A stretch of 64,000 nucleotides of DNA from Candidatus Beckwithbacteria bacterium GW2011_GWC1_49_16 (GCA_001029675.1 CP011210.1:841280-905279), one strand, 5' to 3'. Counted from the stretch's first letter, positions 6,635-39,578 are shown. Notes: generated by a model from the letters alone, not told the origin. Numbers and translations: made by a program.

Positions 6635-7096
6635 CTAGCCAAATTTACTAAATTCGTCAATGAGGGAATAAATGGCGGCGGCGGTAAACCCCCGGGTTTT
6701 GAGCCACGAGGAGATTTTTTGGCGTTTTTGAAGACTGGTTAAGCCCCGGAGACGACGGACACGGGAGCTGATAAATTTTTTAGCTAAAGCTTTTTCCTCG
6801 GCAGCGTCGGGTAAAACCTGGTCGATAATCTCCTCGCTGATCCCCTTTTTCTTGAGCTCGACGGTTAGGCCGAAGTTGCCCCGGGGACGGTGGCTTTGAC
6901 GTTGTTTAACCCACCAGCGGGCAAAACTAACATCGTCGAGCAGACCATCGCCTTTAAGCCGGTTGACGACCCCATCGATCAAGCTTTGGTCGGGAGTAAT
7001 TTTTTCCAAACGGGAGCGAATTTCGGCAACGGAGCGGGCGCGATAGGAAAGAAGTTTTAGAGCCTTGGCGGTTAGTTTTTCCCTAATGTCGGTCAC
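6635..7096 (-). CDS. recX: Regulatory protein RecX
   Basis: 153 aa helical protein immediately downstream of recA and overlapping its stop. RecX-like repeats. Confidence 0.7.
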
Positions 7097-8130
7097 TTTT
7101 TGGGCCGGCCGCGTTTTTTCTTGGCCGGGGCGGGTTCGGGTTCGCCTTTGACTTTGGCCCAGATGTCCTGTTCGATTTTTTTGGCAAGTTTTCCGTTTTC
7201 CAGAAGATAGAGGCGAGCGGCTTCTTTGCCCTGGCCGATGACGTCCTCGCCGTATTTGTAGAAGCTGCCGGATTTAGTCAGGATGCCGTGTTCGACGCCT
7301 AAATCAATCAGGTCGCCCACTTTGGAGATGCCGCCGAGGTTTAAAATGTCGATTTCAGCCAACCTAAAAGGCGGGGCGACTTTGTTTTTGACCACTTTAA
7401 TCCGGTGGCGGGAACCGATGATGATGTCGCCGTCGGCAATGTTGCCGATTTTTCTACAATCCAACCTTATCGAGGCGTAGAATTTTAAGGCCTTGCCTCC
7501 CGGAGTGGTTTCGGGGTTGCCGAACATGACGCCGATTTTCATTCTCAACTGGTTGGTGAAGATGACGGTGGTTTTGGATTTGGAAATGGCGCTGGTTAGT
7601 TTCCTCATCGCTTGGCTCATCAGTCGAGCCTGAACGCCGATCATGGAATCGCCCATTTCGCCTTCGATCTCGGCTTTGGGGACTAAAGCGGCGACCGAGT
7701 CGATGCAGATGACGTCAAGACCGCCGGAGCGGATTAGGGTCTCGGTAATCTCCAGGGCCTGCTCGCCGGTATCTGGCTGGGAGATGAGTAAGTCGTCGAG
7801 GTTGACGCCGATGGACTGGGCCCGTTGGGGGTCAAGGGCGTGCTCGGCGTCGATGAAAGCGGCGGTGCCGCCTTTTTTTTGCGCCTCGGCGATAACATGA
7901 AGACACAGAGTGGTTTTGCCCGAAGCCTCGGGGCCGAAGATTTCGGTAATTCTGCCGCGGGGCAAACCGCCGATACCCAAAGCGATATCTAAAGCGGGCG
8001 AACCTGTAGGAATAAAGGCGATATCGGTGTGTTGTTGCTCGCCCAGCCTCATGATCGAACCAGCACCATACTGCTTCTCGATCTGCTCCATCGCTACTTT
8101 AATTGCTTGAAGTTTGGGATCTTTAGGCAT
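7093..8130 (-). CDS. recA: Recombinase RecA
   Basis: Walker [11 protein letters not shown]. Conserved RecA core over its full length. Confidence 0.95.
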
Positions 8131-9651: not shown

Positions 9652-9703
9652 CGGTTCATTTTTCCATATAGTCTGGTAAAATACAAACGTACCTAGCGTA
9701 CAG

Positions 9704-9774
9704 CGGGGATTAGTTTAACGGTAGAATGCGCGGCTGGGGGCCGTGCGGAGACAGTTCGACCCTGTCATCCCCGA
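9704..9774 (+). tRNA. tRNA-Pro (anticodon GGG)
   Basis: Hand-folded cloverleaf. Acceptor stem CGGGGAT/ATCCCCG is 7 bp perfect. U8 and A14 present. D-loop AACGGTA with G18-G19 and A21, D-stem of 4 pairs including 2 G-U. Anticodon stem CGCGG/CCGTG with loop CU-GGG-GG (U33, G37). T-arm GACAG-TTCGACC-CTGTC. C1-G72 plus A73 are proline identity elements. CCA is not encoded. Confidence 0.8.
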
Positions 9775-9776
9775 AA

Positions 9777-11705
9777 TTAGACTGATATATCAGTCCTTTT
9801 TCTAAGAGCAAGACCTTCTCGAATTAATTTATTGAGAAGGTCATTAACGGTTTTATCAACTTGTTGCCATACTTCTTCGTCAATTTCATTGGTGACTCCC
9901 GGATCGTGTCTTCTAAGTGATGCTTGAAAGACTTCGGCAAAGAGTTCTTCTTGCGACTGTAGCTCTGAAAATTCAATATCTTTTTTCCTTAAAAGGGAGA
10001 AAATGTGCCTTACTTTTTGTCTATCTTCAGAGGGATAATAACTAGTTATGAGTCCCTCAACCTCTTCGGGGTTATCCTCAACCATTTTAGTGATAACAAA
10101 TGGCAAAATTACTCTATTAAAATAGACCCCTGCCGGTTCAATTTTGAACATCCTTCTTTCTGGCGCTTTAAAAAGTTCGAGGTTATTCTCGATAGTATCA
10201 AGCATTCTCTTTTCGAATTCGTTCAACCTATAACCTGACTGATCTAAGTACTGTTTATATTCGTTTTGGTAAAAATCCTCGATCGAGGCGATGGGAGTAT
10301 CACTTTCCCCTTTGGCAAAAAGTCTATAGATCATAAGGTCGTCTAAGGGTTGAGAATAATACTTACTGGAGGCACCATAAAGTCTATAAAGGAAGTAAGT
10401 TAACTTGAAAAAAAGAGATTTTTCATTGACATCATTATCAGGAAACACAAATTCTGTGGCCGGGTAGTCGGTAATACCAGCTTCATTTATATCCTTGTCG
10501 GTTCTTTCTAAAAATTCAATTATGGATTCGTTGCTAAGATCTAGAGATGCAAATTTGCCTGACGGAGTAAAAAAAGTTTTCAGGTTTCTGGTGGGACGGA
10601 AGAGCTCAAGCATTTCTTCAAGGGCGACGGTGTACTTGACGACATCAACGTCTTTCTCAAGAAAAACGATCTTTTTGTGAAGCGAGTGGCCGAATTCGTG
10701 AAGTACGTATTCTTTCCAAACGGTCGGAAATTTCCTGAAACTTTCTATATTTGCTTCTCCTATCCCCAAAACAATCTGGTTTAAAAAGTCGTCGTACTCA
10801 CCCCAAGGATTGTCGCCACCTTCAAATACACCTAAATTCGAAGCTGCTCTTTCTAAGCGATATTCTTTGAGAATTTGTTTTATTTCTTCTTTCAGTTCTT
10901 CATCTTCGGTTGCGACATAAATATTAGCCTCTTTGGGCCTTTTTGGTGCAATGGGGCCTTCCCGAAATTTGATTATTTTTCTCTGCGAGAGACTCTTAAC
11001 TTTAAGATAATTAAGAAGCGTTCCTTGATCAAGGAGTCTGTAAAGAGGACTTTGCTGACGGATCGCGCCAATAGTAGCCAACGCACTGTTGTCATCCCCG
11101 TATCGATCTTCAGAAACAGACCAAACGTCCGCCCACTGGGCGTTAATCGAGAATATCTCTTCTCCTAAAAAGGGGTCGCGAGTATCATAAACGTTAGTGA
11201 TAGATGGATTTCTCAAAGCCTCTTCAAACTTTTCAGGGACATTCCAGTATTCTTCTCTAACCATTAAAAGGGCCCAAACGGCACTGCCAACTTCGTAAAA
11301 ATCATCTTCTATCATCGTTTTGGCTCGCGGGCTTAAATTGCCTTCATTTTTAAGATCGAGATAAACCTGCTTCAGCCTTTTTAACTGGGACATTGATTTT
11401 TCCGTATTGCTTTGCCATTTTTCCTCGTCAAAGGAAATTAGTGCCAGCTGATCTTTAAATTGATAAGGGATGAGACCAAGCTCTCTTTCAATCTGGGGCA
11501 TAAATTTTTCCGGCTCAAAATCTTCTACGTTTTCAAAAAATCTTGTTTCAGACCAGTTGATTCTTTCTCTGGGGGCTTCGTGAGGAAGAAATTTTTCTAA
11601 CTTAAGTAACCAGGGTATCGCGGCCAACTTCAGAACCTCTCTTCTTTTAAGATCAACTTGTGGCCTAGGCAGGTTACCTGTTTCTAATCCGCCTGAATCT
11701 TTCAT
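9777..11705 (-). CDS. Large hypothetical protein with HExxH zinc-metallopeptidase motif
   Basis: 642 aa. HEFGHSLH motif at about residue 330. No other recognisable domain. Confidence 0.4.
   Translation of the reverse strand: MKDSGGLETGNLPRPQVDLKRREVLKLAAIPWLLKLEKFLPHEAPRERINWSETRFFENVEDFEPEKFMPQIERELGLIPYQFKDQLALISFDEEKWQSNTEKSMSQLKRLKQVYLDLKNEGNLSPRAKTMIEDDFYEVGSAVWALLMVREEYWNVPEKFEEALRNPSITNVYDTRDPFLGEEIFSINAQWADVWSVSEDRYGDDNSALATIGAIRQQSPLYRLLDQGTLLNYLKVKSLSQRKIIKFREGPIAPKRPKEANIYVATEDEELKEEIKQILKEYRLERAASNLGVFEGGDNPWGEYDDFLNQIVLGIGEANIESFRKFPTVWKEYVLHEFGHSLHKKIVFLEKDVDVVKYTVALEEMLELFRPTRNLKTFFTPSGKFASLDLSNESIIEFLERTDKDINEAGITDYPATEFVFPDNDVNEKSLFFKLTYFLYRLYGASSKYYSQPLDDLMIYRLFAKGESDTPIASIEDFYQNEYKQYLDQSGYRLNEFEKRMLDTIENNLELFKAPERRMFKIEPAGVYFNRVILPFVITKMVEDNPEEVEGLITSYYPSEDRQKVRHIFSLLRKKDIEFSELQSQEELFAEVFQASLRRHDPGVTNEIDEEVWQQVDKTVNDLLNKLIREGLALRKRTDISV
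9780..9803 (+). terminator. Intrinsic terminator downstream of tRNA-Pro
   Basis: Perfect 16-nt palindrome GACTGATATATCAGTC followed by CTTTTTCT. It overlaps the last codons of the convergent minus-strand gene. Confidence 0.55.
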
Positions 11706-14078: not shown

Positions 14079-15221
14079 ATGAAAAACTCGCCGGCACTGG
14101 CCTACTCTCAAAAGCCCAAGCTGGCGGTGAAAATCCTGGCGCCATTGAAAAGCAAAAGAGATTTGAGTTTGGCCTATACGCCCGGCATTGCCGAGGTGGC
14201 CAAAGCGGTGGCGGCAGACGGCAACAAACTTTATACTTACACCTTTAAAAGAAACAATCTGGCGGTAATTTCGGACGGGTCGGCGGTGTTGGGGCTGGGG
14301 AACATCGGCCACAAGGGCAGCTACCCGGTGATGGAGGGCAAGGCGATGTTGTTTCGCCGCTTTGGCAGAATCAACGCCGTGCCGATCATTGTCAAAACCC
14401 AAAAGGTCGATGAGTTTGTGGACACGGTAGTCAACATTGCCGATTCTTTTGGGGCGATTAACCTTGAAGACATCAGCGCCCCGCGCTGCTTTGAGATTGA
14501 AGAGCGGTTAAAGAAGCTTTTGGACATTCCCCTGATGCACGACGACCAGCACGGCACGGCCATCGTGGTGCTGTCGGCTTTGACCAATGCCTTAAAACTT
14601 CTGCCCAAATCAGGCAAAAACACCCGGATCGTGATGGTCGGCTCCGGGTCGGCGGGAGTGGCGGTGAGCCGGCTTTTAGTCATGGCCGGCTATAAAAACA
14701 TCATTCTGTGCGATTCCAAAGGCATCGTCAGCAAACGCCGGCGCGACCTGAACCCGGTAAAAAGAGCCATGCTCAAGGTGACCAACCCCAATAATGTTTC
14801 GGGGAAAATCCAAGACGCTTTGAAAGGCGCCCAAGGGCTAATCGGGGTGTCGCGGGCGGGGCTGGTCGGCCCGGCCGATATTAAACTGATGGATAAAGCG
14901 CCGATTATTTTTGCCATGGCCAACCCGGTGCCGGAGATTATGCCCGACGAAGCCCGCCGCGCCGGGGCCGGGATCGTGGGCACGGGCAGGAGCGACTATC
15001 CTAACCAAATCAACAACGCTTTGGCTTTCCCCGGAGTCTTCCGAGGGGCGATTGACGCCAGGGCGAAAATTACCGACAAGATGAAACTGGCCGCAGTTGC
15101 CGCCATCGTCTCCTACCACCAAAAGAATTTAGCCAAAAACAAACTCATGCCGAGGGTATTGGATTCTAAAGTCCACCAAGTGATTGCCCGGGCGGTTTAC
15201 TCGGCCGCCAAACAAAAGTAG
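14079..15221 (+). CDS. NAD(P)-dependent malic enzyme (short form)
   Basis: Conserved malic-enzyme blocks LSLAYTPGIAEV, AVISDGSAVLGLGNIG, and Rossmann GSGSAGVAV. Confidence 0.85.
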   Translation: MKNSPALAYSQKPKLAVKILAPLKSKRDLSLAYTPGIAEVAKAVAADGNKLYTYTFKRNNLAVISDGSAVLGLGNIGHKGSYPVMEGKAMLFRRFGRINAVPIIVKTQKVDEFVDTVVNIADSFGAINLEDISAPRCFEIEERLKKLLDIPLMHDDQHGTAIVVLSALTNALKLLPKSGKNTRIVMVGSGSAGVAVSRLLVMAGYKNIILCDSKGIVSKRRRDLNPVKRAMLKVTNPNNVSGKIQDALKGAQGLIGVSRAGLVGPADIKLMDKAPIIFAMANPVPEIMPDEARRAGAGIVGTGRSDYPNQINNALAFPGVFRGAIDARAKITDKMKLAAVAAIVSYHQKNLAKNKLMPRVLDSKVHQVIARAVYSAAKQK

Positions 15222-15988
15222 CTGCCGATTAGGGAAAATTCTTCCAAGTGGGTTTGTTGGTTATAGAAGGTCGAGGCAGAACCGCCGTCGAGGTTTAAAG
15301 CCGTGGTGAAGCTTAACCCTAAAGTCTCGGCCAGGTTAACCAAAAGGCGCGGAGTCTCGGCCAAAAGCGGCCCGGTAAAAGCCGAGTCTTCCCCGACGAG
15401 CGCCAAAAAAACCAGCTGGCCTTGGAGGGTAGTAGCGGCGACTACTCGGCGGCGGGGTTCGTCGTTTTTGATCCTCAAAGGCAAAGGCAGGCCGTTGGCA
15501 ATCAGCAGCGGCCCCGACTGCAAACCCCAGTCAACCGCCCCCTGCGGTCTGACGTTGCTCAAAGAAACTTGGCCTTGATTTAAACTTAAGTAGCCGTTTA
15601 AGAAATCTGACAAAACCGGCGGAGACGCTTGGCGACCCTCGGCAACCAACCAACCGATGGGTTCGCCGTTAAGGTCGTAAAATCCGCCGGAAACTAAACC
15701 AGAGCAGGTAGAGATTAGATCGGCGCTTTCGGCTTTAGCTTGGTGATTGGGGAAAAGCTTGAGGCTGGCGGGATCGTCAACCGCCAAAACGGCGTAGTGA
15801 AAGGTTTGGTCTTCAAAAAAGAAAGTGTCCATGGTGGCTAAAACCACTTCGGGGGTTTGGGGACCCTCCTGGCTAACACCCCTCGGGGTAAGCTGGGGCT
15901 CTTCGACGGAAGTTGGATCAAAGTTGGTTTTTTGGTAAAACCAAACTCCAGTTAAAACCACCCCCAAAAGGATGAGGATCTTTTTCAT
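15197..15988 (-). CDS. Phosphodiester glycosidase-like secreted protein
   Basis: N-terminal signal/TM. ALNLDGGSAS motif resembles the NAGPA/phosphodiester glycosidase family. Confidence 0.4.
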   Translation of the reverse strand: MKKILILLGVVLTGVWFYQKTNFDPTSVEEPQLTPRGVSQEGPQTPEVVLATMDTFFFEDQTFHYAVLAVDDPASLKLFPNHQAKAESADLISTCSGLVSGGFYDLNGEPIGWLVAEGRQASPPVLSDFLNGYLSLNQGQVSLSNVRPQGAVDWGLQSGPLLIANGLPLPLRIKNDEPRRRVVAATTLQGQLVFLALVGEDSAFTGPLLAETPRLLVNLAETLGLSFTTALNLDGGSASTFYNQQTHLEEFSLIGSYFCLAAE

Positions 15989-20198: not shown

Positions 20199-20462
20199 AT
20201 GTATAATTGGTCGGTTGATGAGAAGGCTTTTAAAAAAAGAAATCCGGAAGGGTATCGGCTGTGGCGGCTGGTACAACTGATTAACTACGGCCTGGACGGC
20301 GAGAAACTCGACGAGGACGAAGTCAAAAAAGCCTGGCCGAAGATTAAAGATGATCTCGATCCGTATTCTCGGCGGGCTATAGAGTATTTATTATGGCAAA
20401 AAGCATACTCACTGCCAAGCAACGTGACTTTTTGGAATTGGCAGAAAAAGAACCTTCACTAG
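20199..20462 (+). CDS. Small hypothetical protein upstream of and overlapping the AbiEii-like gene
   Basis: ORF of about 87 aa (track 20181..20462). It overlaps the NTase start by 70 nt, so it is uncertain whether it is real. By position it could be a cognate antitoxin. Confidence 0.3.
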   Translation: MYNWSVDEKAFKKRNPEGYRLWRLVQLINYGLDGEKLDEDEVKKAWPKIKDDLDPYSRRAIEYLLWQKAYSLPSNVTFWNWQKKNLH

Positions 20463-21073
20463 TTAAGCGGTTTTATTTAACCGGCGGCACGGCTTTGGCG
20501 GAGTTTTACTTTCAACATCGGTTGTCGGAAGATATCGATCTTTTTTCCGAACAAGAAGTAAATCCCAAAGCGGCAGAGGCTTTTTTGAAAAAGGCGGCGG
20601 CAAACTTAAAGATTAAAAAAATTGTCAGACAGCAGTTTTTGGGACTTCATACCTATAAACTCCACTATAAAGATGGCGATTTTTTAAAGGTGGATTTTAA
20701 CTATTATCCGTTCCCCCGGATTGAAAAAGGAACGAGTTTTGGTAAATTGGAAGTTAGCAGCGTCTACGATATTGCCGTAAATAAGATTCATACCGTCGGC
20801 ATGAAGCCCAGGGCCAGAGACTATGTTGATTTGTATTTTATTTTTACCACCTCAAAATACAAACCGGAAAAATATTTACAGAGAATGCGGCTCGACAGCC
20901 AGGCAAAATTTGATTGGCCGTTGGAGGCAAAAAACTTGGCGGCGGGGTTTTTGCGGGTGAAAGACTTTTCTAAAACCGACCTGCCCAAAATGCTCAAACC
21001 CCTTGACCTTAAAGCCATGGAAAAGTTTTTTTTGCAGCTGGCCCGGGGTTTGAAAAAGGAAATTTTTAAATGA
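20393..21073 (+). CDS. Nucleotidyltransferase of the AbiEii/AbiGii toxin family
   Basis: FYLTGGTALAEFYF..RLSEDIDLF matches the AbiEii NTase signature (GGTAL...SxDIDL). Confidence 0.65.
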   Translation: MAKSILTAKQRDFLELAEKEPSLVKRFYLTGGTALAEFYFQHRLSEDIDLFSEQEVNPKAAEAFLKKAAANLKIKKIVRQQFLGLHTYKLHYKDGDFLKVDFNYYPFPRIEKGTSFGKLEVSSVYDIAVNKIHTVGMKPRARDYVDLYFIFTTSKYKPEKYLQRMRLDSQAKFDWPLEAKNLAAGFLRVKDFSKTDLPKMLKPLDLKAMEKFFLQLARGLKKEIFK

Positions 21074-24665: not shown

Positions 24666-25487
24666 TTGATGAAAAATTACTTTGCCTTTATAGACGAATC
24701 AGGAAACTCGACGCAGGAAAGATTTTTTGGTCTGGGTTTAATGCTGATGGACGACGAAATTGGTGATTTCTATGATGCTATGAAGCCTCATTATGAAAAA
24801 GCTTTTAACATTGCCAAGTCAAACAAAATAACCAGAGTTAAAGAACTAGAAAAGAATGCCGACCTGAAACAGTTGTCTAGTTTAGCAAGTAGCCATATCC
24901 ATTTTGAATTAAAGTTTAAGTATGTAAACTTTACTAATAATGTAGTTTATCGAGACTTGGTAGCCACCTATTTTAACTTCAAAGAGGTAAGGTTTTGCGC
25001 CTTGATTATTGATCGTCAAACTTATTCAAATACAACCAAAAAGGGAATTACCTTAAATCCCTGGGATGTTTATATTAATCAAGCCTCCATGCTTCTGGCA
25101 AACAACATCAGGGAAATTACCCCGTGTAATGTTTGCGTTTTAGCGGATGATTTGTCAAAGCCCACATATATCAAAAAGTCGTTTGAAAAATCTCTCAAAG
25201 ATGCGCTTGAATACCGATTGAAAAAACGAGGTATCAGCAATAGTGTGTTTGGAGTTACAAGATTGGAGTCTCATTCATCTTTACTATTGCAAGTTTCAGA
25301 CATACTTTTGGGAGCGGTAATGTATGATTATAAGAAAAAAATTGGTTTAATTTCCGAAAAGCTTAGTCAAAGACAAGAGATTGTCACTGAAAAGATTCGC
25401 AGTATTCTCAAAACTAAAAGCTTAGCTGTCAATAAAACATTTCATCAACCCAACTATTTTTCCGTTTGGGAACTGAAGAAGCCATAA
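24666..25487 (+). CDS. DUF3800 family protein
   Basis: N-terminal YFAFIDESGN motif characteristic of DUF3800. Confidence 0.5.
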   Translation: MMKNYFAFIDESGNSTQERFFGLGLMLMDDEIGDFYDAMKPHYEKAFNIAKSNKITRVKELEKNADLKQLSSLASSHIHFELKFKYVNFTNNVVYRDLVATYFNFKEVRFCALIIDRQTYSNTTKKGITLNPWDVYINQASMLLANNIREITPCNVCVLADDLSKPTYIKKSFEKSLKDALEYRLKKRGISNSVFGVTRLESHSSLLLQVSDILLGAVMYDYKKKIGLISEKLSQRQEIVTEKIRSILKTKSLAVNKTFHQPNYFSVWELKKP

Positions 25488-25490
25488 AAA

Positions 25491-25524
25491 TTGCGGGTCA
25501 TGGACAAGAGACCCACACCCGCAA
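25491..25524. terminator. Hairpin between convergent DUF3800 and VRR-NUC genes
   Basis: TTGCGGGTC-n-GACCCACACCCGCAA inverted repeat (8-9 bp stem). No clean T-run. Confidence 0.3.
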
Positions 25525-25588
25525 TAACAGTATATATAAATTGTGGGACAAAAGTCAATCTTCTTTGTCTTTTTTGTCAACCCCCTGC

Positions 25589-26092
25589 TTAATTTTTTAA
25601 AACAACTAAACCTTCGCAAACTTTAGCTTGCAAAAGAACCACTTGCTTTTTAATCATCTGCTTTTTAAACCTTTTTTCAATTTGCTTAAAGAAATTCTTT
25701 TGGGCTGGGCTAAGCTTATCGGTTCTTTTAACCTCGGCGAAGAAAAATTCTTTACCCTTATAAACAAAAAGGTCTGGCGGCTGGGTTTTCTTCCTTTTAT
25801 CTTCTCGGCGCAAAAACCTAAAACCGTCTTCGCCGACAAATTTTTTGACAATTTGCTGTTTTCTGGGATGGGGGTTGTAAATGTACTGCTCCACCAAAAC
25901 ATTGAAGCCCTGCCGGTAGTAATGGATGGCCCTTAACCACTCGATAAAATGCCAGCTCGGCTGGCTGACGGTCAACTGCAAATCTTTATCGTCAAACAGC
26001 TTGGGATATTTCTTTTTTAGTTCCTTTGCCAACTTACCGGTTTTCCACCGATCCCAGAGCTTTGGATCATAACTAAAGTACTCGGTTTTCAT
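25589..26092 (-). CDS. VRR-NUC domain nuclease
   Basis: PDLFVYKGKEFFFAEVKRTDKLSPAQKNFFKQI matches the VRR-NUC PD-(D/E)XK core (PDL...EVK...LSxxQ). Confidence 0.5.
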   Translation of the reverse strand: MKTEYFSYDPKLWDRWKTGKLAKELKKKYPKLFDDKDLQLTVSQPSWHFIEWLRAIHYYRQGFNVLVEQYIYNPHPRKQQIVKKFVGEDGFRFLRREDKRKKTQPPDLFVYKGKEFFFAEVKRTDKLSPAQKNFFKQIEKRFKKQMIKKQVVLLQAKVCEGLVVLKN

Positions 26093-26214
26093 ACAAGGCG
26101 TTGACTGCTTCAGTGTAGCATGGAGTCAGTTTCTTGGGGGGGGCGTTGTGATGATATAGTTTGCACGAGATATTGGTAGTTGACCCAGACGAAATAGTCG
26201 GGTATTCTCGAGGT

Positions 26215-26850
26215 ATGAAAAAAGTAACTGCCCGGCAAAAAGAGTTGTTAAAGGTTGTTTACGACTATATTAAAACAACTGGTTATCCTCCGACCATAAA
26301 GGAGATGAGAGATAGTTTGAAGGTCACCTCTAATCAGTCTGTCATCGACCTACTAGAACACCTAGAAAATAAAAAGTTGATCAAGCGACAAGAAGGTGTA
26401 GCTAGAAGCATTGTGATTTTACCTTTTGGGTACGAAGCCATTGCTAAAACAGCCTTGGCTCCATTCCTGGGCATGAGTCACGCCGGATCCCCCATTGACG
26501 CTATACAAATAGATGGCGAGTGGCAAGAGCTTTCTAACGAGGCCGCTCAGCTTAAGGATAATGTTTTTTTGCTTAAAGTTTTGGGTGACTCGATGATAAA
26601 CGCAGGCATTGATAACGGTGACGTTGTTTTAGTCAGAGTGCAAAAGGAGTTTGTGTCCGGAGACATAGTACTGGCTGAGGTTGAAGGTGAATCAACAATT
26701 AAACGGTTTATGTCTGATGACACTCCTCCATTTATTTACCTAAAGCCTGAGAATCCAAAACATAAAGTAATTCCATTTAACGAAAGAACTAAGCTTAAGG
26801 GAAAAATAATCTCTATCTTAAAAGAGGGGTCCTGGAAGTCTATTAACTAA
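26215..26850 (+). CDS. lexA: LexA-like repressor (wHTH plus S24 peptidase)
   Basis: N-terminal LexA DNA-binding domain (ARQKELLKVVYDYIKTTGYPPTIKEMRDSL). Ala-Gly cleavage site (SHAGSP). Ser/Lys dyad (VLGDSM ... TIKRF). Stop is 1 nt before the methylase start. Confidence 0.8.
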   Translation: MKKVTARQKELLKVVYDYIKTTGYPPTIKEMRDSLKVTSNQSVIDLLEHLENKKLIKRQEGVARSIVILPFGYEAIAKTALAPFLGMSHAGSPIDAIQIDGEWQELSNEAAQLKDNVFLLKVLGDSMINAGIDNGDVVLVRVQKEFVSGDIVLAEVEGESTIKRFMSDDTPPFIYLKPENPKHKVIPFNERTKLKGKIISILKEGSWKSIN

Positions 26851-26851
26851 T

Positions 26852-28807
26852 ATGCCAACTAAAAAGCCCAATAAAGCTGAAGAAATTATCAAAAAGGTTT
26901 TTAAAGAGCCGGATATTGCCCATGGCCTTAAAGAGTTTGAAGACTTGGATTTGAAAACTATCCTTTATATCACCGAGGAAGAAAAAGGCAGATATTTTGT
27001 GAAAGATCTTAAATCCGGCAAAACAAGGCTGGTTTATGACGAGACCAAAAAAAAGGGCAAGCCAGAGGAGATTGTGCGCCAGCTTTGGCTTTACAAGCTC
27101 AACAAAATCTATGGCTATCCTTTTGAAAGGATTGAAGTAGAAAAAAGTATCCATTTCGGCAGAGAGATTAGAGCAAAAGCGGCTGACATTGTGATTACCA
27201 AAACAGACAAAATCACACCCTATATTATCGTTGAAGTAAAAAAGCCTGATGAGAAAAAAGGCATAGAACAGTTAAAGAGTTATCTATCTGCCGAGGGTAG
27301 CGAAATTGGCGTTTGGTCAAACGGGATAGAAAAGGTGGTGCTCTACCGCCCTTACCCTAAAGAATATGAAGACTCTTTGAGTGATATTCCCAGAGCAGAC
27401 CAAAAGATTGACGATTTATTCGAAGTTAGGCGCACTTGGCAGGAATTAAACCCTAAGTTTGACTTTGTCCATATTGTCAGAAGCATCGAAGAGGCGGCGC
27501 TGGCTGGTTCCGGGGCGAATGTATTTGAAGAGATTTTTAAAATTCTTTATGCCAAGCTATTTGACGAAAAACTGGCCCGGGATCAACGGAAAGATCAAGA
27601 GGTGTTGTTTAGAAAATATAAAGATCCGGAAAAAACTTATGAGGTGATTAACCAACTTTTTAAAAATGCTGCTAGGCAATGGCCGGATACTTTTGAGCTG
27701 TCTGACAAGATTAGGCTTTCTCCCCAGAGACTTAATGTTTGTGTGCCATTTTTAGAAAAAGTGCGTTTGTTTGAAGTGGGCCAAGGAGAACTGGAGATTA
27801 TCGATAGCGCTTTTGAGTACTTAATTACCGAGGTTTCCAAGGGTAAAAAAGGGCAGTATTTCACCCCCCGCCACGTAATTAAGATGTGTATCAAGATTGT
27901 GAACCCCAAAACAAGCGAATATGTGATTGATCCTGCCTGTGGCTCGGGAGGGTTTCTGCTTCACACCATGTATCATGCCTGGGAAGAATTACCGACCGAA
28001 GCGGCTAAAAAAGAGTACGCCGCCAAATATTTATACGGCATTGACTTTGACGATAACATGCGCCGGATTTCCCAAGCGCTGATGCTAATTGCCGGAGACG
28101 GCAAGCACCATATTTTCAAACGCAACTCGCTTGACAGTCGTGACTGGACCGGCTATGAAGCCGAAGAAGCCAGAGTAGAGTTTAAAAAACTGCTACACAA
28201 ATTTGATAATCCCGCTGATGACAAGGAAAATCAAAAAAGCTTTAGGCATTTGGATTTCGACATCCTGCTGACAAACCCACCGTTTGCCGGAGAGAATAAG
28301 GGCGACGCCGGACTTTTAAGACAATACGAATTGGCTAAAAGCGACGGTAAGCTAAAAAACAATGTCGATCGGCATATCCTATTTATCGAGCGATCGCTAG
28401 ACGCTGTCCGCCCTGGGGGCAGACTAGCGATAGTTTTACCCCAAGGGGTGCTTAACAATACCAATATGGCCTACATTCGCCAGTGGCTGTTTGATAAGGC
28501 CATAATTTTGGCGGTGGTCGGGCTTCACGTCAACACTTTTAAACCTCACGCGGGCACGAAAACGTCCGTGCTATTTTTGCAAAAGTGGCCCGAGGACAAA
28601 AAACACCTCAAAGACTACCCTATTTTTATGGCGGTTTCCAAAAAACCCGGCAAGGACAACTCCGGCGACTATGTTTATAAAAAAGACGATAAAGGCAACT
28701 TTTCCTACGACGTTAATGGTCGCAAGGTCCTGGATCACGACCTAGACGAAATTGCGGATAAGTTTATCGAGTTTGCTAAAAAGGAGGGTTTTAGTTTTTC
28801 GACATGA
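26852..28807 (+). CDS. Restriction-modification fusion: HsdR-N-type PD-(D/E)XK nuclease domain plus N6-adenine DNA methyltransferase (Type IIB/BcgI-A-like)
   Basis: Residues about 100-180: ADIVITKTD...PYIIVEVKKPD...GIEQLKSY...GVWSNG, equivalent to the HsdR N-terminal endonuclease motifs. MTase motif I DPACGSGGFL and motif IV LLTNPPFAG. Confidence 0.8.
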   Translation: MPTKKPNKAEEIIKKVFKEPDIAHGLKEFEDLDLKTILYITEEEKGRYFVKDLKSGKTRLVYDETKKKGKPEEIVRQLWLYKLNKIYGYPFERIEVEKSIHFGREIRAKAADIVITKTDKITPYIIVEVKKPDEKKGIEQLKSYLSAEGSEIGVWSNGIEKVVLYRPYPKEYEDSLSDIPRADQKIDDLFEVRRTWQELNPKFDFVHIVRSIEEAALAGSGANVFEEIFKILYAKLFDEKLARDQRKDQEVLFRKYKDPEKTYEVINQLFKNAARQWPDTFELSDKIRLSPQRLNVCVPFLEKVRLFEVGQGELEIIDSAFEYLITEVSKGKKGQYFTPRHVIKMCIKIVNPKTSEYVIDPACGSGGFLLHTMYHAWEELPTEAAKKEYAAKYLYGIDFDDNMRRISQALMLIAGDGKHHIFKRNSLDSRDWTGYEAEEARVEFKKLLHKFDNPADDKENQKSFRHLDFDILLTNPPFAGENKGDAGLLRQYELAKSDGKLKNNVDRHILFIERSLDAVRPGGRLAIVLPQGVLNNTNMAYIRQWLFDKAIILAVVGLHVNTFKPHAGTKTSVLFLQKWPEDKKHLKDYPIFMAVSKKPGKDNSGDYVYKKDDKGNFSYDVNGRKVLDHDLDEIADKFIEFAKKEGFSFST

Positions 28808-30549
28808 GATACAAAAAATTTCTAATTCAAAATTATAAAGCCATCAAAAAAGCAACCATAGAATTGACAGACGATGGTCTTGTCTTGCTACTAGGAATAA
28901 ACGAGTCTGGAAAGACGAGTGTTCTACTGGCTATAGAGTCATTTGATCATACAAATGACCCTACCGATGAGAATCTGAAACTAAAACGGTATAAGCAGAT
29001 AAGAAATAAAAGAGAGATTACGGGTGTTAGCGAGGCCAAAATAACAGCCGAGATACAAATGGAGAAAAACGACCAAAAGAGGATCAAAGAAACGCTTTTA
29101 ACAGATGGTTTTTTAGACAAGGATCGAGAAAGAGAATTTCAAGAGCTCCTTAAGATAGTAGGTGTGATAAAGATATGCAGAAAATTTGTTTATCAAGATG
29201 CAGAGTTTAATCAAGTTGTCTATGAACTTTTGGATAACGGTAAAAAATTCTTAAGCCTCTTAAAAGGTGAAATTAATGAGGATGCAGTTTGCAAGTCTAT
29301 TCTAAAAATCTCCCCATCAGTTCAGTATTTTGAAGATTTCAAAGACCAGATACCAGAATTTATTAGTCCTGTTCCAGGCGCACAGTATTATGATTTAGAT
29401 TGGGTCAATACACTGGAAGGTCTTTTCTATCATGCGGACCCAAAGCTGTCGATATCAGCCTTTGAGGCAATCAAAGATGATGTTGCTAGAAAAACCTTAG
29501 AAAGAAGGGTAAACAACAAATTAAATAAACAATTCACTCAGCGCTGGAATAAATTAAAAGGCGTAAAAACTATTCATCAGGCAGACCTTATTTATCTAAA
29601 GACAGAACAGCTTTTTACCTTTCAAATAGTAGGGGCTGATAGGGCAACAGTTTTTTCTGTTGATGAAAGAAGTAAGGGGGCCTTGTGGTATTTCACTTTT
29701 CTTTTAAAAACTGAGTTTAGGAAACGTAAACTGAGAGCACAAACTGGAAAGACTTTATACCTAATAGATGAGCCTGGTTCCAACTTGCACTCATCGGCTC
29801 AGACAAATATGAGAGAGGATTTTAAAACTCTGGCTAGCGACTCTAATGTTATATACACAACTCACAACCAGTATCTTATTGATACAACTAACCTTTCAAG
29901 CACCTATATCACTGAAACTTCTGGAGGCGTGATCAAAGCTACTAAGTATAGCCAGTATTTACAAGGACGCAGTGTTAAGACTTCTTACTTCCAGCCACTA
30001 CTGGATGCAATTAAAGTACAACCTTTTTCGCTAGAAATTCCATGGGAAAAAACATTAATCTGTGAAGGAATATATGACTACATTGCTTACTCCATAGCTT
30101 TTGAAGATTTACTTGGTAAAAAGCTGGGTTTCTCCATTATTCCGGGAGAAGGTGCTTCTAGTCTTTCACCTCTCATATCTCTGAGTATAGCCTGGGGTTC
30201 AAAGTTTTTGGTGTTGCTCGATAGAGATGAAGAGGGGGTGGAACAAGCTGAAAGGTACTCTGGTAATTTTAAAATTTTCAAAGATAAAATCTTAACTTTA
30301 GGTGATATTGCCAAATTGGCAAAACAGAATTTTGAAGTGGAAGACCTTTTTTCTGTCCGAGATAAAATGAAACTTGCTACTTTGGCTGGAGTGTCCTTGG
30401 TCAAACCTCCAACGAAGGGGTCTTTTGACCAAATTTTGGCTACCATATTTCTCTCACAACCTTTAAGGAGAAAGGTTCAAGACAATTTGGAAAAGAGCAC
30501 AAAAAAAACATTTGAAGGAATTTACAGACATTTAAACTCTCTTTATTAA
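28804..30549 (+). CDS. OLD-family ATP-dependent endonuclease (ABC-type ATPase plus Toprim)
   Basis: Walker A LGINESGKTS, Walker B LYLIDEPGSNLH, H-loop TTHNQ. C-terminal Toprim: TLICEGIYDYIAY (catalytic Glu) and FLVLLDRDEEG (DxD). ATGA overlap with the upstream gene. Confidence 0.75.
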   Translation: MRYKKFLIQNYKAIKKATIELTDDGLVLLLGINESGKTSVLLAIESFDHTNDPTDENLKLKRYKQIRNKREITGVSEAKITAEIQMEKNDQKRIKETLLTDGFLDKDREREFQELLKIVGVIKICRKFVYQDAEFNQVVYELLDNGKKFLSLLKGEINEDAVCKSILKISPSVQYFEDFKDQIPEFISPVPGAQYYDLDWVNTLEGLFYHADPKLSISAFEAIKDDVARKTLERRVNNKLNKQFTQRWNKLKGVKTIHQADLIYLKTEQLFTFQIVGADRATVFSVDERSKGALWYFTFLLKTEFRKRKLRAQTGKTLYLIDEPGSNLHSSAQTNMREDFKTLASDSNVIYTTHNQYLIDTTNLSSTYITETSGGVIKATKYSQYLQGRSVKTSYFQPLLDAIKVQPFSLEIPWEKTLICEGIYDYIAYSIAFEDLLGKKLGFSIIPGEGASSLSPLISLSIAWGSKFLVLLDRDEEGVEQAERYSGNFKIFKDKILTLGDIAKLAKQNFEVEDLFSVRDKMKLATLAGVSLVKPPTKGSFDQILATIFLSQPLRRKVQDNLEKSTKKTFEGIYRHLNSLY

Positions 30550-30556
30550 AATTGCC

Positions 30557-31957
30557 ATGGATTTTTCAATAATCCAAAAATCTCAACTTGAAGGACCGAA
30601 TCGGCTGGATGCGGAATATTTTCAACCACAATATTTGGAATTAGAGAAGAATATTTTACAAACAGATACACTTATAAAGTGGGAAGAAATAGATGGTAAA
30701 TTCATTACAGGTCCGTTTGGTTCGGAATTTAATGTTGAAAACTACGATGAGAACAGCCAACACAGATATGTTAGGGGTAAGGATGTAAAACCCTTCTTTT
30801 TATCGACGGATGATAATGTTTACATACCTGAAAAAGATTTTGTAAGACTTAAAAAGTACTCTCTTGAAGAAGATGATATTTTAATATCTGTGGTTGGGAC
30901 TTTGGGAAATGCAACAGTTATAGACAGCTCTAACTTACCTGCCATATTCAGTAGCAAAAGCACTACATTTAGATCCAGAAATATTAATGCGTATTATTTA
31001 TTAGCATATTTAAACTCAAAATATGGTCAGGGGCTTTTGTTAAGATGCTCAAGAGGTCAGGTACAGACAGGGCTAAATATAGTCGACTTGAAAACTTTAC
31101 CTATTTACTTGCCTTCTACAGAAAAGCAAGACGCCGTGGCCTCTTTAGTTAAAAAATCTTACGATTTGCTAGGGCAATCAAAATTTAGGTATGTGGAAGC
31201 AGAAGACTTACTTTTTGAGGAGTTGGGATTGAAAGATTTTGAGGTTCCGGAAGATTTGACTTGGGTGGTAGGTTATTCGGAAGTTGAGAAGGAAAATCGT
31301 GTTGATGCCGAGTACTTTCAACCAAAGTACGAAAAAATTGTTTCAACAATAAAATCATATAGTAAGGGTTGGGACTTTTTAAAAAATTTAACAACTTTGA
31401 TTGGCCATCCTTCAAACCCTCCATATGCTCGCGCGGATTCAATTGATAAAACTTTTATCATCACTCAAAAACATCTTTCAGACTATTTTCCTTTAGATAA
31501 TTTTTGGGAAGATAAAAAAGCACTATATACAACTAATGACTTTATAAATAAAAATAAAGAATTTCTTTTAAGGGAAAACGATATTCTTCTTTATTCAGTC
31601 GGAGCCTATATAGGTAAGACAAACATCTATAATTCAAATACAAAAGCTACAATTGGAAGCTTTTTAACTTTAGTTCGGGCAAAACAAGACATTATCAACC
31701 CGTTTTACCTACTAGTTTTCTTGAATTCTGAAATTGGACACCTTCTTACACGTAGAAATTCAAAAGGATTGGCCCAGCAATACATTTACCCCTATGATAC
31801 AAAAAACATTCCAGTTCCAAAAATTGATAATGGTGTTCAAGAAGAAATTGGGAAGTTTATCAAAAAGGGTTACGAGGCGAGGAAGAAATCAAAAGAGTTA
31901 CTTGAAGAAGCTAAAAGGAAAGTTGAAGAAATGATAGACAAGGGCAGTAAAAACTAA
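30557..31957 (+). CDS. hsdS: Restriction-modification specificity subunit HsdS with two TRDs
   Basis: Two-fold internal repeat with conserved LDAEYFQPQY / VDAEYFQPKY blocks at residues about 18 and about 251. 466 aa. Confidence 0.8.
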   Translation: MDFSIIQKSQLEGPNRLDAEYFQPQYLELEKNILQTDTLIKWEEIDGKFITGPFGSEFNVENYDENSQHRYVRGKDVKPFFLSTDDNVYIPEKDFVRLKKYSLEEDDILISVVGTLGNATVIDSSNLPAIFSSKSTTFRSRNINAYYLLAYLNSKYGQGLLLRCSRGQVQTGLNIVDLKTLPIYLPSTEKQDAVASLVKKSYDLLGQSKFRYVEAEDLLFEELGLKDFEVPEDLTWVVGYSEVEKENRVDAEYFQPKYEKIVSTIKSYSKGWDFLKNLTTLIGHPSNPPYARADSIDKTFIITQKHLSDYFPLDNFWEDKKALYTTNDFINKNKEFLLRENDILLYSVGAYIGKTNIYNSNTKATIGSFLTLVRAKQDIINPFYLLVFLNSEIGHLLTRRNSKGLAQQYIYPYDTKNIPVPKIDNGVQEEIGKFIKKGYEARKKSKELLEEAKRKVEEMIDKGSKN

Positions 31958-31964
31958 TGATCTT

Positions 31965-32159
31965 ATGAATATTAAAGAACTATTAAAGGAAATGGAAAGA
32001 GTTTATGAGCCCCAAGAAATAGAATTTGATTTTACTAGGTTATTCTATAAACTTGAGAAGATTTGCCCGGAGCATGGAGTTGGAGAGAAAAATTTAGACC
32101 TACAAAGATATGCTTGTCCGGCTTGCAATAAGATTCTAAAGAAAAAGAGGCGTTTATGA
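31965..32159 (+). CDS. Small zinc-ribbon protein with basic tail
   Basis: CPEHG...CPAC, C-terminal KKKRRL. 7 nt after the hsdS stop. Confidence 0.4.
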   Translation: MNIKELLKEMERVYEPQEIEFDFTRLFYKLEKICPEHGVGEKNLDLQRYACPACNKILKKKRRL

Positions 32160-32476
32160 CCAAACAGGCTTTGCTGGAAAAACTGGAAGTAAAAGTTGGA
32201 AAAACTTTAAGGTTTATAAACGAAGTTTTATTCCCTAGAAACGACGTAAATAGAGATATCTTGGATAAATATAAAGTGGTGCTCAATAACTACTTAAAAA
32301 GTAAAAATATTGACACACTACATCAGCTGAAAGATTTACATTATAGACCAACACCTGAGGGTTCTCAGACTGACTACACTGAAGGCACGGGTTTGGCTTT
32401 TGATGGAAAACACACTACGCTTTCTGACCTGCTTATGGAAATTGAAGATTTAATTGTAATAATTAGAAAGAATTGA
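32156..32476 (+). CDS. Hypothetical protein
   Basis: 106 aa. ATGA overlap with the upstream ORF. Confidence 0.35.
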   Translation: MTKQALLEKLEVKVGKTLRFINEVLFPRNDVNRDILDKYKVVLNNYLKSKNIDTLHQLKDLHYRPTPEGSQTDYTEGTGLAFDGKHTTLSDLLMEIEDLIVIIRKN

Positions 32477-32479
32477 TAA

Positions 32480-32938
32480 ATGAGTGATAAAAAGAAAAAA
32501 GGAAGAACTGGAGAGCAAGAGGTGGTTGATTTAGTAAAATGTCCAAATTGTTTAAGTAAACTAATCTTGCTACCAGAAAGTTTTCCGATGTATGACGTGC
32601 AATGTTCGAGGTGTCTTTTTCGAGCCCAAGTGAAAACAGTGCATAGCAAGCCTAAAGCCTCAATTTTCGGCGCCGGATGGAGAATTCTTGAAAAAGTTTT
32701 AAAGGCTGGATGCTTGATGCCTCAATTAATGGTTAACTTCAAGTGGAGTTCAAGAAACGGTGGCTTAAATCAAGAAATTCGTTTTTACCCATTCATTGCT
32801 AAAGGCAATATCCAAAAATATAAATTGTCTGCAAAAGCGAGAAGGGCTAACTATTGGATGTTTAAATACGTGAAGTTAGATAAAATACCCTATCTACCCT
32901 TATATCAACAACACGATCCTCTACGGACTAATGAGTAG
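32480..32938 (+). CDS. Zinc-ribbon protein, possible degenerate PD-(D/E)XK (Hjc-like) nuclease fold
   Basis: GRTGEQEV (GxxGE-like motif I), CPNC..CSRC insertion, YDVQ and AQVK as candidate D/(E/Q)xK. Speculative. Confidence 0.3.
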   Translation: MSDKKKKGRTGEQEVVDLVKCPNCLSKLILLPESFPMYDVQCSRCLFRAQVKTVHSKPKASIFGAGWRILEKVLKAGCLMPQLMVNFKWSSRNGGLNQEIRFYPFIAKGNIQKYKLSAKARRANYWMFKYVKLDKIPYLPLYQQHDPLRTNE

Positions 32939-38284: not shown

Positions 38285-38715
38285 TGGTAAAAGTAGTTAA
38301 ATCCGACCGCCAGTGGGGGGAAAAATTAACTGACGAGCAGTTTAAGGTATTGAGGCGTTGCGGAACAGAACCACCGTTTACGGGGAAATACGTTCGTCAC
38401 AAAGGCAAGGGTATGTATGTTTGCGCCGGCTGCGGAGCGAAACTGTTTGACTCGGACACCAAGTATGACTCGCAGTCGGGCTGGCCGGCTTTTTGGGACG
38501 TGGTGGATAAAAAGGCGGTCAAGCTAACAGACGACAATACTTTGGGGATGAGTCGAACCGAAGTCACTTGTGCCAATTGCGGCGGGCACCTGGGACATGT
38601 ATTCAACGACGGACCCAAGGAAAAAACGGGGTTAAGGTACTGCATCAACTCGGCGGCTTTGGATTTTCAGCCAAAGGCTGATGGGTCTTTGGCCCATGAG
38701 GGGAAGGAAAAATGA
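38284..38715 (+). CDS. msrB: Peptide methionine sulfoxide reductase MsrB
   Basis: [38 protein letters not shown] are SelR/MsrB signatures. Confidence 0.9.
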
Positions 38716-39578
38716 AAGATAAGTATAACGCCACCTGGGTGTCGTATTCATCGATTTCGGACTGGTTGCGCTGCCCTCGGGCCTACTACTTTAAAAACGT
38801 CTATAAAAACCCCAAGACGGGTAGGAAAATCAGCCTGATGGCCCCGCCTTTGGCTTTGGGCCAGGCGGTGCACGAGGTGATCGAGGGCTTGTCGACCTTA
38901 GCGGTGGATAAACGCTTTGACACGCCGTTGGTTACCAGGCTGGAACAAGCCTGGAAGAAAATTTCCGGCAAGCGGGGTGGGTTTTCTGATCGTGACCAGG
39001 AAGCAAGATTTTTGGACCGGGCCAAGGTCATGCTTAAGCGAGTGAACGACCATCCGGGGCCTTTGAAAAATTTGGCGGTAAAAATTAAAACCGAGGGCGG
39101 GATGACGCCGTATTTTTGGCTGTCGGAAGCTGACGAGATCATTTTGGTGGGCAGGATCGACTGGCTGGAATATTTGGCGGACAAGGAAGCAGTGCACATC
39201 ATCGACTTTAAGACGGGTAAGACAAAACAGAAAGACGGCTCGCTCCAGCTGCCGATCTACTTGCTTCTGGCCGAAAACCTGCAAGAGCGGCCGGTGAAAA
39301 AAGTAAGTTATTGGTATATTGAACAGAGTAACGCTCCGGAAGAGCAAAAAATGCCGGTGAAAGAAAAAGCCGAACAAGACGTCTTAAAGGTAGCCAAGGA
39401 AATTAGTCTGGCTAAAAAACTTAATCGCTTTGTCTGCCCCCACGGCGGCTGCCCGGCCTGCCGCGAAATGGAGGCGGTAACTGAAGGTAAAGCCGAGATG
39501 GTGGGGGTGGACGAGATCGGCCGGGAGGTGTATGTTTTGGAGCACGGCAAAGCGGCTTTTGAAAGCGAGCTGCTATAA
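38712..39578 (+). CDS. Cas4/RecB-like PD-(D/E)XK nuclease with Fe-S cluster
   Basis: N-terminal Cys (WLRCPRAYY) plus C-terminal CPHGGCPAC, which is the Cas4 C-x(n)-C-x4-C-x2-C arrangement. Core [17 protein letters not shown]. Confidence 0.55.

Follow-up and report, generated by a model that had tools for sequence, protein, structure and literature searches.

A lexA gene heads a predicted restriction-modification operon in Candidatus Beckwithbacteria and related Patescibacteria

In a 64,000-nucleotide stretch of the Candidatus Beckwithbacteria bacterium GW2011_GWC1_49_16 genome (GCA_001029675.1, CP011210.1:841280-905279; hereafter, the window), we analysed a lexA gene that is followed immediately by a gene for a restriction-modification (R-M) enzyme. 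Our best reading is that positions 26180-32938 form a single operon of seven genes (6.7 kb) headed by a true LexA repressor, and that lexA, the R-M gene, variable cargo and a specificity (S) gene make up a module that is shared and exchanged among Patescibacteria. On balance, we lean towards seeing in it a self-repressed R-M/defence cassette that is probably inducible by DNA damage, a proposal derived from sequence. A preliminary description of this DNA had offered two options, either co-transcription of the cell's SOS regulator with a defence operon or a LexA paralog specific to an island that makes restriction damage-responsive. Each was partly right, and neither foresaw that lexA and R-M genes are paired systematically.

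Judged by its domains and residues, the protein encoded by the first gene is a true LexA. Pfam assigned residues 1-64 to LexA_DNA_bind (PF01726, 61.1 bits) and residues 83-198 to Peptidase_S24 (PF00717, 81 bits), and the protein scored 160.7 bits against TIGR00498, the NCBIfam lexA equivalog model (cutoff 110.95). It aligned over its full length with the Thermotoga and E. coli LexA structures, best with Thermotoga 3k2z, and its cleavage and catalytic residues lined up with those of the Thermotoga structure. In an alignment of the window LexA with 17 homologues, A90-G91, S126 (GDSM) and K163 (IKRF) were invariant in all 18 proteins. The architecture claimed earlier (winged helix-turn-helix (HTH), Ala-Gly site and Ser-Lys dyad) was therefore borne out, and RecA*-stimulated self-cleavage would be expected of such a protein. 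The gene starts where it had been placed, at 26215, but it stops at 26850; the previously given end, 26860, runs 10 nt into the next gene. A JGI gene call that starts at TTG 26161 (229 aa) was rejected as too long, because the geometry of the promoter places the start at 26215. Ca. Beckwithbacteria GW2011_GWB1_47_15 has proteins 100% identical to the LexA (AKM79676.1), the RecA and the methyltransferase (MTase) of the window. The neighbourhood of lexA was the same in 24 of 24 contigs, with no strain-level variation of the locus, and the region 24666-32938 was identical or differed by 1 nt in three assemblies.

The predicted LexA operator lies inside the lexA promoter. A sigma-70-type promoter, which was recovered by an independent, blind consensus scan, precedes lexA, and an imperfect palindrome fills the spacer between its -35 and -10 boxes (Table 1). 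In the aligned upstream regions of related loci, a -35 box of the form TTGAC and a TATAAT-like -10 box enclose the consensus ACCCGAC-N6-GTCGGGT. With a position weight matrix (PWM) trained on 19 sites, the window operator scored 28.2 bits and the runner-up site in the 64 kb scored 10.8 bits. Of 39 metagenome loci outside the training set, 33 had a match to the matrix at their lexA promoter, as did 50 of 63 loci overall. In a LexA sub-clade at 40-45% identity, the corresponding position held a variant core, (G/T)AC-N6-GT(C/T). The operator core thus drifts with LexA divergence and therefore behaves as expected for LexA's operator. Together, these patterns suggest that LexA binds the palindrome.

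The same promoter predicts a leaderless lexA mRNA, since the -10 box ends 6 nt upstream of the ATG. This distance was 5-9 nt (mode 6) in 52 of 54 lexA loci of the candidate phyla radiation (CPR), the two exceptions having a Shine-Dalgarno leader. Both GTTGAC hexamers reported earlier upstream of lexA are present; only the second (26179-26184) looks functional, as its TTGACC is the lexA -35 box. The first (26100-26105) was rejected as a promoter, as it has no -10 box at the correct spacing and is absent from the consensus-scan list. We found no support for the divergent promoter region that lexA was said to share with the neighbouring VRR-NUC-like gene. A G8 tract in the intergenic region between these two genes (26136-26143) was considered as a phase-variation switch and rejected, since it does not differ among three independent assemblies. 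A perfect DnaA box (TTATCCACA, in either orientation) occurred upstream of the lexA -35 box in most CPR loci (~30 loci), at ~30-60 nt from it in the cases examined and often beside a terminator-like hairpin. No perfect DnaA box was found anywhere in the window, 26093-26180 included; the divergent VRR-NUC-like gene holds that position.

Downstream, lexA and the R-M gene meet as TAA-T-ATG, so that the lexA stop is 1 nt from the MTase start codon, as had been described. This start is not an annotation artefact, because the N-terminus MPTKKPNK...YGLKEF is kept from residue 1 in ~39 homologues. Among loci with the window's R-M family, the distance from the lexA stop to the next start was -4 to +8 nt in 28 of 38, and a Shine-Dalgarno-like motif at the R-M start was present in only 6 of 39. 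Short gaps and scarce Shine-Dalgarno motifs fit termination-reinitiation, in agreement with the translational coupling proposed before. No separate promoter or terminator was evident between lexA and the R-M gene in the promoter consensus scan. The genes further down the operon are separated by gaps or overlaps of at most 7 nt, and a convergent gene then follows position 32938.

The second gene encodes a fusion of nuclease and MTase, with HSDR_N_2 at residues 71-180 and N6_Mtase at residues 316-649 (Pfam) and a 540-bit match to PADLOC MTase_I PDLC03034. Its motifs include the nuclease residues D112, E128 and K130 and, in the MTase, DPACGSGG and NPPF (residue 475). The three nuclease residues and NPPF were invariant in 28 of 28 full-length family members, and from its sequence the enzyme looks active. 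The closest solved structure was RM.BsaXI (8w0p, E = 2.6e-29). Nearly every locus has an HsdS-like gene behind the R-M gene, with an identity of only 29-36%; next to a conserved R-M enzyme, this is the usual pattern of a diversifying specificity subunit. Neither the operon nor its flanking genes (24.2-36.6 kb) contain a helicase or ResIII gene that could serve as an HsdR motor, and the system therefore does not belong to the classical Type I.

Between the R-M and S genes lies a cargo slot that holds zero to three unrelated same-strand genes per locus. In the window it is occupied by the gene for an OLD-family ATPase, which had no counterpart in any other lexA locus compared. The ATPase domain behind the earlier OLD label is solid (AAA_15, 65.5 bits; PADLOC Old, 65.5 bits), but its TOPRIM match stays below threshold (OLD-like_TOPRIM, 20.8 bits; cutoff 23.2). 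Among 24 related cargo genes, Pfam identified DUF3800 (three), Trypsin_2 (two), and DUF6119, a PemK/MazF toxin and an RnlA-toxin-like domain (one each). The slot behaves like a small intra-operon hot spot for defence/toxin-like genes.

To place this operon among its relatives, lexA loci were gathered from species-representative genomes and metagenomes with LexA-specific peptide patterns. Among the matches listed, 63 loci were of the Patescibacteria type, and 58 of these had enough downstream sequence to be informative. An R-M gene lay directly 3' of lexA, or was fused to it, in 52 of the 58. Most of these (39 loci) carried the same HSDR_N-methyltransferase family as the window. Nine had other sets of MTases and restriction endonucleases, including N6_N4_Mtase with TdeIII, an Eco57I-type enzyme with Tsp45I, and an N6_Mtase of 600-620 aa with short S subunits where the contig reaches far enough. 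In the remaining four (L022, L110, L111 and L113), LexA runs in frame into an N4/N6 methyltransferase. Viewed by domain, the first downstream open reading frames (ORFs) had HSDR_N_2 in 39 of 53 cases and N6_Mtase in 38, and the rest included N6_N4_Mtase, MutH, HNH, Tsp45I and TdeIII. The six informative loci without an R-M gene were L017 (a Bro-N gene), L096 (a 133-aa ORF of no known kind) and L023-L026. As a control, we examined 89 non-CPR lexA loci, 34 of which had a same-strand ORF within 250 nt; an R-M domain was found in none of the 34.

The four LexA-MTase fusions lie on four separate contigs and represent two MTase subtypes. Each joins a complete LexA part (A-G site, GDSM and Lys) through a Lys/Asn-rich linker to an N4/N6 MTase with DPPY or SPPY, and they are followed by HNH, MutH-like or DUF6996/DUF6997 genes. 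A further locus, L013, keeps the N-terminus of an HSDR_N-methyltransferase directly 3' of lexA, followed by an N6_N4 MTase and TdeIII. A remnant ahead of a different R-M system indicates that the cassette behind lexA gets replaced. Our best reading of these arrangements is that R-M cassettes are exchanged behind a lexA gene and operator that themselves stay constant, and DNA-damage signalling is probably wired to anti-phage defence in these CPR bacteria.

Composition and context distinguish this module from its surroundings. The GC content at third codon positions (GC3) was 0.41 for lexA, 0.47 for the R-M gene, 0.33 for the OLD gene and 0.29 for the S gene, against 0.66 for recA and 0.65-0.75 for core genes. 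Three related Beckwithbacteria have in common the backbone S9-PDDEXK1-Dus-NAGPA-SIMPL-...-recA-recX-RNaseY-HU. In the window, ~23 kb (15900-38700) lie between PDDEXK1 (38712-39578) and NAGPA (15212-15832), with the lexA block inside; the backbones of the three relatives lack this segment. The R-M protein was 74-80% identical to proteins of Daviesbacteria, Nealsonbacteria, Woesebacteria, Portnoybacteria and Roizmanbacteria, whereas RecA was only 60-64% identical to that of Parcubacteria-type loci. Conservation of the R-M enzyme beyond that of RecA implies that it has been exchanged between lineages. LexA itself showed no taxonomic signal, with 61% identity to the Beckwithbacteria protein of L007 and 60-63% to those of Parcubacteria loci. 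A phage origin of the module was considered and rejected: in a set of 2.9 M viral contigs, the top match to LexA was 37% identical, and no known viral contig carries the module. The 23-kb segment is mosaic in GC content and stands in place of the relatives' Dus gene; it also holds AbiEii (20393-21073), SNase, a DNA-alkylation-repair gene and several low-GC hypothetical genes.

We then asked how far the operator extends beyond lexA. The scans covered the 64-kb window (~6% of the genome) and, elsewhere, 10 kb on either side of lexA, ~0.8 Mb in all. Neither the PWM nor a structured search for an operator with a -10 box found an operator at any promoter other than that of lexA in this sequence. 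The recA and recX genes do lie 18 kb from lexA, as stated before, and the LexA box that had been suggested as a check upstream of recA did not turn up in the window, in the three Beckwithbacteria relatives or in L021, L119 and L121. A weak half-operator in the promoter spacer of the window's recA unit was rejected as a recA LexA box: the recA promoters of the three relatives have no such site, and because it is unconserved we treat it as a chance match. Additional PWM matches at L085:6420, L003:706 and L106:1427 were rejected as regulon members, as they fall within genes or hairpins and lack a promoter context. On this evidence, LexA's own operon appears to be the only target detectable here. 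The recA promoters of the Beckwithbacteria relatives are also leaderless (TTGACA-17-TTTAAT, 6-7 nt, ATG) and have a conserved spacer, GTTTCGGTAAATCTTTG. In the window, tRNA-Pro and recA are separated by two additional genes, hyp312 and an RDD-family gene; the stop codon of the latter is overlapped by the start of recA.

These features suggest the following mechanism. A LexA dimer on the 20-bp palindrome would block RNA polymerase at the -35/-10 spacer and so make the operon self-repressed. The transcript would begin at or next to the lexA ATG and be leaderless, and ribosomes that finish lexA would re-initiate 1 nt further on at the nuclease-methyltransferase gene and then translate the OLD nuclease, the S subunit and three small ORFs. 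RecA, as the presumed source of the co-protease signal, would form filaments on single-stranded DNA, possibly following DNA damage or the processing of restricted or phage DNA, and LexA would then cut itself at A90-G91 by means of S126 and K163. With the promoter free, the levels of LexA, R-M enzyme and cargo nuclease would climb together until new LexA shuts the promoter again. A plausible pay-off would be feed-forward defence, in which the ends of restricted or replicating phage DNA activate RecA and thereby lead to more restriction and more abortive-type cargo.

Several observations weigh against this proposal. All of the regulation in it is deduced from sequence, and other operators or a second lexA may lie outside the scanned ~6% of the genome. 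Induction of a restriction enzyme after damage is the opposite of classical Type I 'restriction alleviation', and the benefit of damage induction is therefore not obvious. Four 'Saccharibacteria'-labelled loci (L023-L026) have a lexA without an R-M gene, with a LexA at ~40% identity and a GAAC-type box. The way in which lexA GC content partly tracks host GC content in other loci, and the position of recA within 4 kb of lexA in L021, L119 and L121, would suit a resident housekeeping gene no less than a mobile one. Finally, some loci are near-duplicates (for example, L012 and L095) and sampling was pattern-based, so the counts show a strong rule and not an unbiased census.

The foreign composition of the block could also mean that the window gene is a module-specific paralog, akin to lexA2, that controls only its own acquired R-M cassette while another, canonical lexA runs the SOS response. 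Such a paralog would fit the low GC3 of lexA and of its R-M and S genes, the location of lexA in the variable segment, its missing taxonomic signal, an operator that in the scanned sequence occurs at its own promoter and not at recA, and the lexA2 precedent (PMC5261740). However, the 64-kb window has no second S24/LexA gene, and all Microgenomates and Parcubacteria LexA proteins at 40% identity or more, among the matches listed, were of the R-M-linked type. No assembly in the species-representative search had two LexA matches, although the patterns are specific to this clade. CPR genomes are, moreover, gene-poor at ~1 Mb, and the three loci with lexA next to recA speak against a paralog. We consider the paralog rather unlikely. 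Of the island option in the preliminary description, the island is thus favoured by GC3, the variable segment, the lack of a recA operator and R-M identity, and the paralog is disfavoured by the recovery of a sole LexA type.

It seems improbable to us that the LexA fold is a mere homeostatic autorepressor that, like a C protein, limits R-M expression on entry into a host, with RecA-triggered cleavage playing no physiological role. The layout does resemble that of C proteins: the regulator lies directly 5' of the R gene, its own promoter holds an operator and its mRNA is predicted to be leaderless. In addition, no repair gene in the scanned sequence carries the operator. But none of the 18 aligned proteins departs from the A-G site, Ser and Lys, and the LexA-MTase fusions keep them too, which would be puzzling for a cleavage function that is never used; the window also encodes recA and recX; and a fused R-M enzyme needs no delay from methylation to restriction. 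An adjacency without regulatory meaning, with the region 3' of a housekeeping lexA acting as an insertion hot spot for R-M genes, would account for the different R-M types in one position, the replaced gene in L013 and the varying cargo. It would not account for the conserved start-stop distances of a few nucleotides without a Shine-Dalgarno motif, the four in-frame fusions, the absence of the arrangement from all 89 non-CPR loci or the lack of an evident promoter or terminator between lexA and the R-M gene, and we regard it as very improbable. Preferring the damage-inducible, self-repressed cassette, we also put forward, tentatively, a broader possibility. In CPR bacteria of the Microgenomates/Parcubacteria type, the LexA regulon may have collapsed to lexA and an exchangeable R-M/defence cassette, so that the output of RecA and LexA would be mainly restriction and anti-phage defence and not repair or mutagenesis, and lexA with its operator would be a fixed docking point for recombinational R-M cassette swaps.

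The operon shares features with several known systems. Canonical lexA genes (E. coli lexA-dinF and the LexA of Thermotoga and Gram-positive bacteria) have the same domains, cleavage site and dyad, an operator at their own promoter and a co-transcribed downstream gene. The Gram-positive LexA box has the consensus CGAAC-N4-GTTCG, and the operator keeps its outer CGA...TCG. In contrast to canonical lexA, the window has an R-M/defence cassette instead of dinF, a leaderless transcript is predicted, and no further operator was detected in the sequence scanned, at recA or at any other place. R-M systems with C proteins (C.PvuII, C.AhdI and C.Esp1396I) likewise have a regulator 5' of the restriction gene and a palindromic operator in its own promoter. 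C genes lie directly 5' of the restriction gene or overlap it, and the PvuII C transcript is leaderless; the earlier comparison with C proteins was apt in that the window operon, too, places its regulator ahead of the R-M gene and is predicted to yield a leaderless mRNA. Built as XRE-type HTH proteins of ~80-100 aa, C proteins lack a peptidase domain and both activate and repress, whereas the window LexA has a self-cleavage module and an operator position that predicts repression only. With LexA_DNA_bind and S24 domains in 211 aa, it was rejected as a C protein (small XRE/HTH_3, no peptidase). A foreign defence gene within an R-M operon also has a parallel in PrrC, which is lodged between the methylase and specificity genes of the EcoprrI Type I operon. 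The cargo families differ (OLD here, and MazF, RnlA-like, DUF3800 and trypsin-like genes elsewhere), and the window operon, unlike EcoprrI, has no HsdR motor.

As for the enzyme, Type IIB systems such as BsaXI and BcgI, which cut DNA to either side of a bipartite site, also combine an R-M fusion subunit with a separate S subunit that has two target-recognition domains. BsaXI acts as an (RM)2S assembly (PMC11997821). The sequence similarity of the window enzyme to RM.BsaXI is confined to the MTase and a helical part (residues 213-582), the window nuclease being an N-terminal HSDR_N_2 domain, and the subunit has 651 aa against 916 aa in BsaXI. The lexA2 gene of P. putida shares a transcript with imuABC, and its product mediates the damage induction of that cassette (PMC5261740). 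The lexA2-imuA-imuB-dnaE2 (imuC) cassettes of P. putida and other Proteobacteria are, like the window operon, multigene cassettes headed by their own LexA gene; their cargo is translesion polymerases, whereas that of the window is R-M and an OLD-type nuclease. The lexA2 system has a known primary lexA1, and the window genome was read here for 64 kb only. Abella et al. reportedly found in 2004 that the lexA2 cassette is distributed widely and patchily. The R-M subunit, ATPase and S subunit also matched MAD2, MAD3 and MAD5 of the MADS system below threshold and in the same order. The MADS model requires MAD6, MAD7 and MAD8 (bioRxiv 10.1101/2023.03.30.534895). Membership in MADS was rejected, as the scores were far under the NCBIfam cutoffs (295 vs 720; 145 vs 400) and MAD6-8 are absent.

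CPR bacteria, or Patescibacteria, make up a large share of bacterial diversity, mostly have no CRISPR and are thought to rely on restriction-modification. If our proposal is true, placing R-M and embedded defence genes under a LexA/RecA sensor would be a lineage-wide regulatory logic for immunity. CBASS has a DNA-damage-responsive control by CapH/CapP, and the arrangement described here would be a parallel to it built from the classical SOS repressor. It would also be a concrete evolutionary case of a conserved regulator gene acting as an anchor for cassette exchange. A precise operator, a predicted leaderless start, natural LexA-MTase fusions and a highly conserved Type IIB-like enzyme family amenable to expression and assay offer testable material. 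LexA and the R-M family themselves are of known kinds. What appears to be new is the lineage-wide lexA-R-M operon, with its conserved operator and leaderless geometry, the exchangeable cassette and the LexA-methyltransferase fusions; these were undescribed in the literature searched, and a study of the SOS network of Patescibacteria (Sanchez-Osuna et al. 2017) may have reported the motif or the operon before.

Table 1. Features of the lexA operon, its neighbourhood and related loci. Positions without a locus number refer to the window; L numbers denote other loci.
Feature	Position	Strand	Description
lexA	26215-26850	+	211 aa; ATG 26215, TAA 26848-26850; winged HTH, cleavage site A90-G91, dyad S126/K163
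lexA promoter, sigma-70-type	26180-26208	+	-35 TTGACC 26180-26185, 17-nt spacer, -10 TATTCT 26203-26208
Predicted LexA operator	26184-26203		CCCAGAC-GAAATA-GTCGGGT; imperfect 7+6+7 palindrome, 20 bp; fills -35/-10 spacer
R-M fusion subunit	26852-28807	+	651 aa; N-terminal PD-(D/E)XK nuclease and gamma-class N6-adenine MTase
OLD-family ABC-ATPase, probable TOPRIM	28804-30549	+	581 aa; cargo between R-M and S genes; start overlaps R-M stop (ATGA)
Specificity (S) subunit	30557-31957	+	466 aa; two target-recognition domains; Methylase_S in two stretches
Three tight low-GC ORFs, operon end	31965-32938	+	64, 106 and 152 aa; gaps/overlaps 7, -4 and 3 nt
Divergent PD-(D/E)XK (VRR-NUC-like) gene	25589-26092	-	167 aa; sits where relatives have DnaA box
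DUF3800 gene	24666-25487	+	PADLOC candidate PDC-M04A; left end of low-GC block
recX	6635-7096	-	
recA	7093-8130	-	18.1 kb from lexA
Weak half-operator	9658-9677		ACCAGAC on - strand; promoter spacer of hyp312-RDD-recA-recX unit; PWM 9.9 bits
Promoter region of recA unit	9652-9700	-	
Leaderless recA promoters	L244:5930-6003; L245:5960-6003; L246:5960-6003		
LexA-MTase fusions	L022:9995-11431; L110:9992-11479; L111:4789-6282; L113:431-1882		478-497 aa
R-M remnant	L013:1557-1775		72 aa; HSDR_N-methyltransferase N-terminus directly 3' of lexA; then N6_N4 MTase and TdeIII
Cargo slot, examples	28804-30549; L010:8793-10708; L084:3226-4794; L118:2767-4453		
DnaA box, examples	L021:9903-9911; L022:9941-9949; L116:9930-9938; L121:9913-9921		

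At the end of the operon, the three small ORFs had no homologues at the other loci compared. The product of the last gene (32480-32938, 152 aa) has Cys-x2-Cys pairs and a DpnI-family match of 25.5 bits, below the threshold of 26.7; it had no PDB or PADLOC match and could be a fragment of a methyl-directed nuclease. On the other side of lexA, the nuclease motif of the VRR-NUC-like gene (PD...EVK...S..Q) is readable, which upholds this part of its earlier label, but the Pfam match to VRR_NUC (20.7 bits) falls below the threshold of 23.8. Its protein had no PDB sequence match, and among the compared loci the gene was found in this genome only. DUF3800, encoded next to it, also occupies the cargo slot of L010 and L118 among others, and in L005 a DUF3800-like gene comes after the R-M gene. 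Near recA, a 642-aa ORF (9777-11705, minus strand) adjoins tRNA-Pro (9704-9774); it had no Pfam match and a GC3 of 0.37 against ~0.65 for its neighbours, and is probably another acquired gene.

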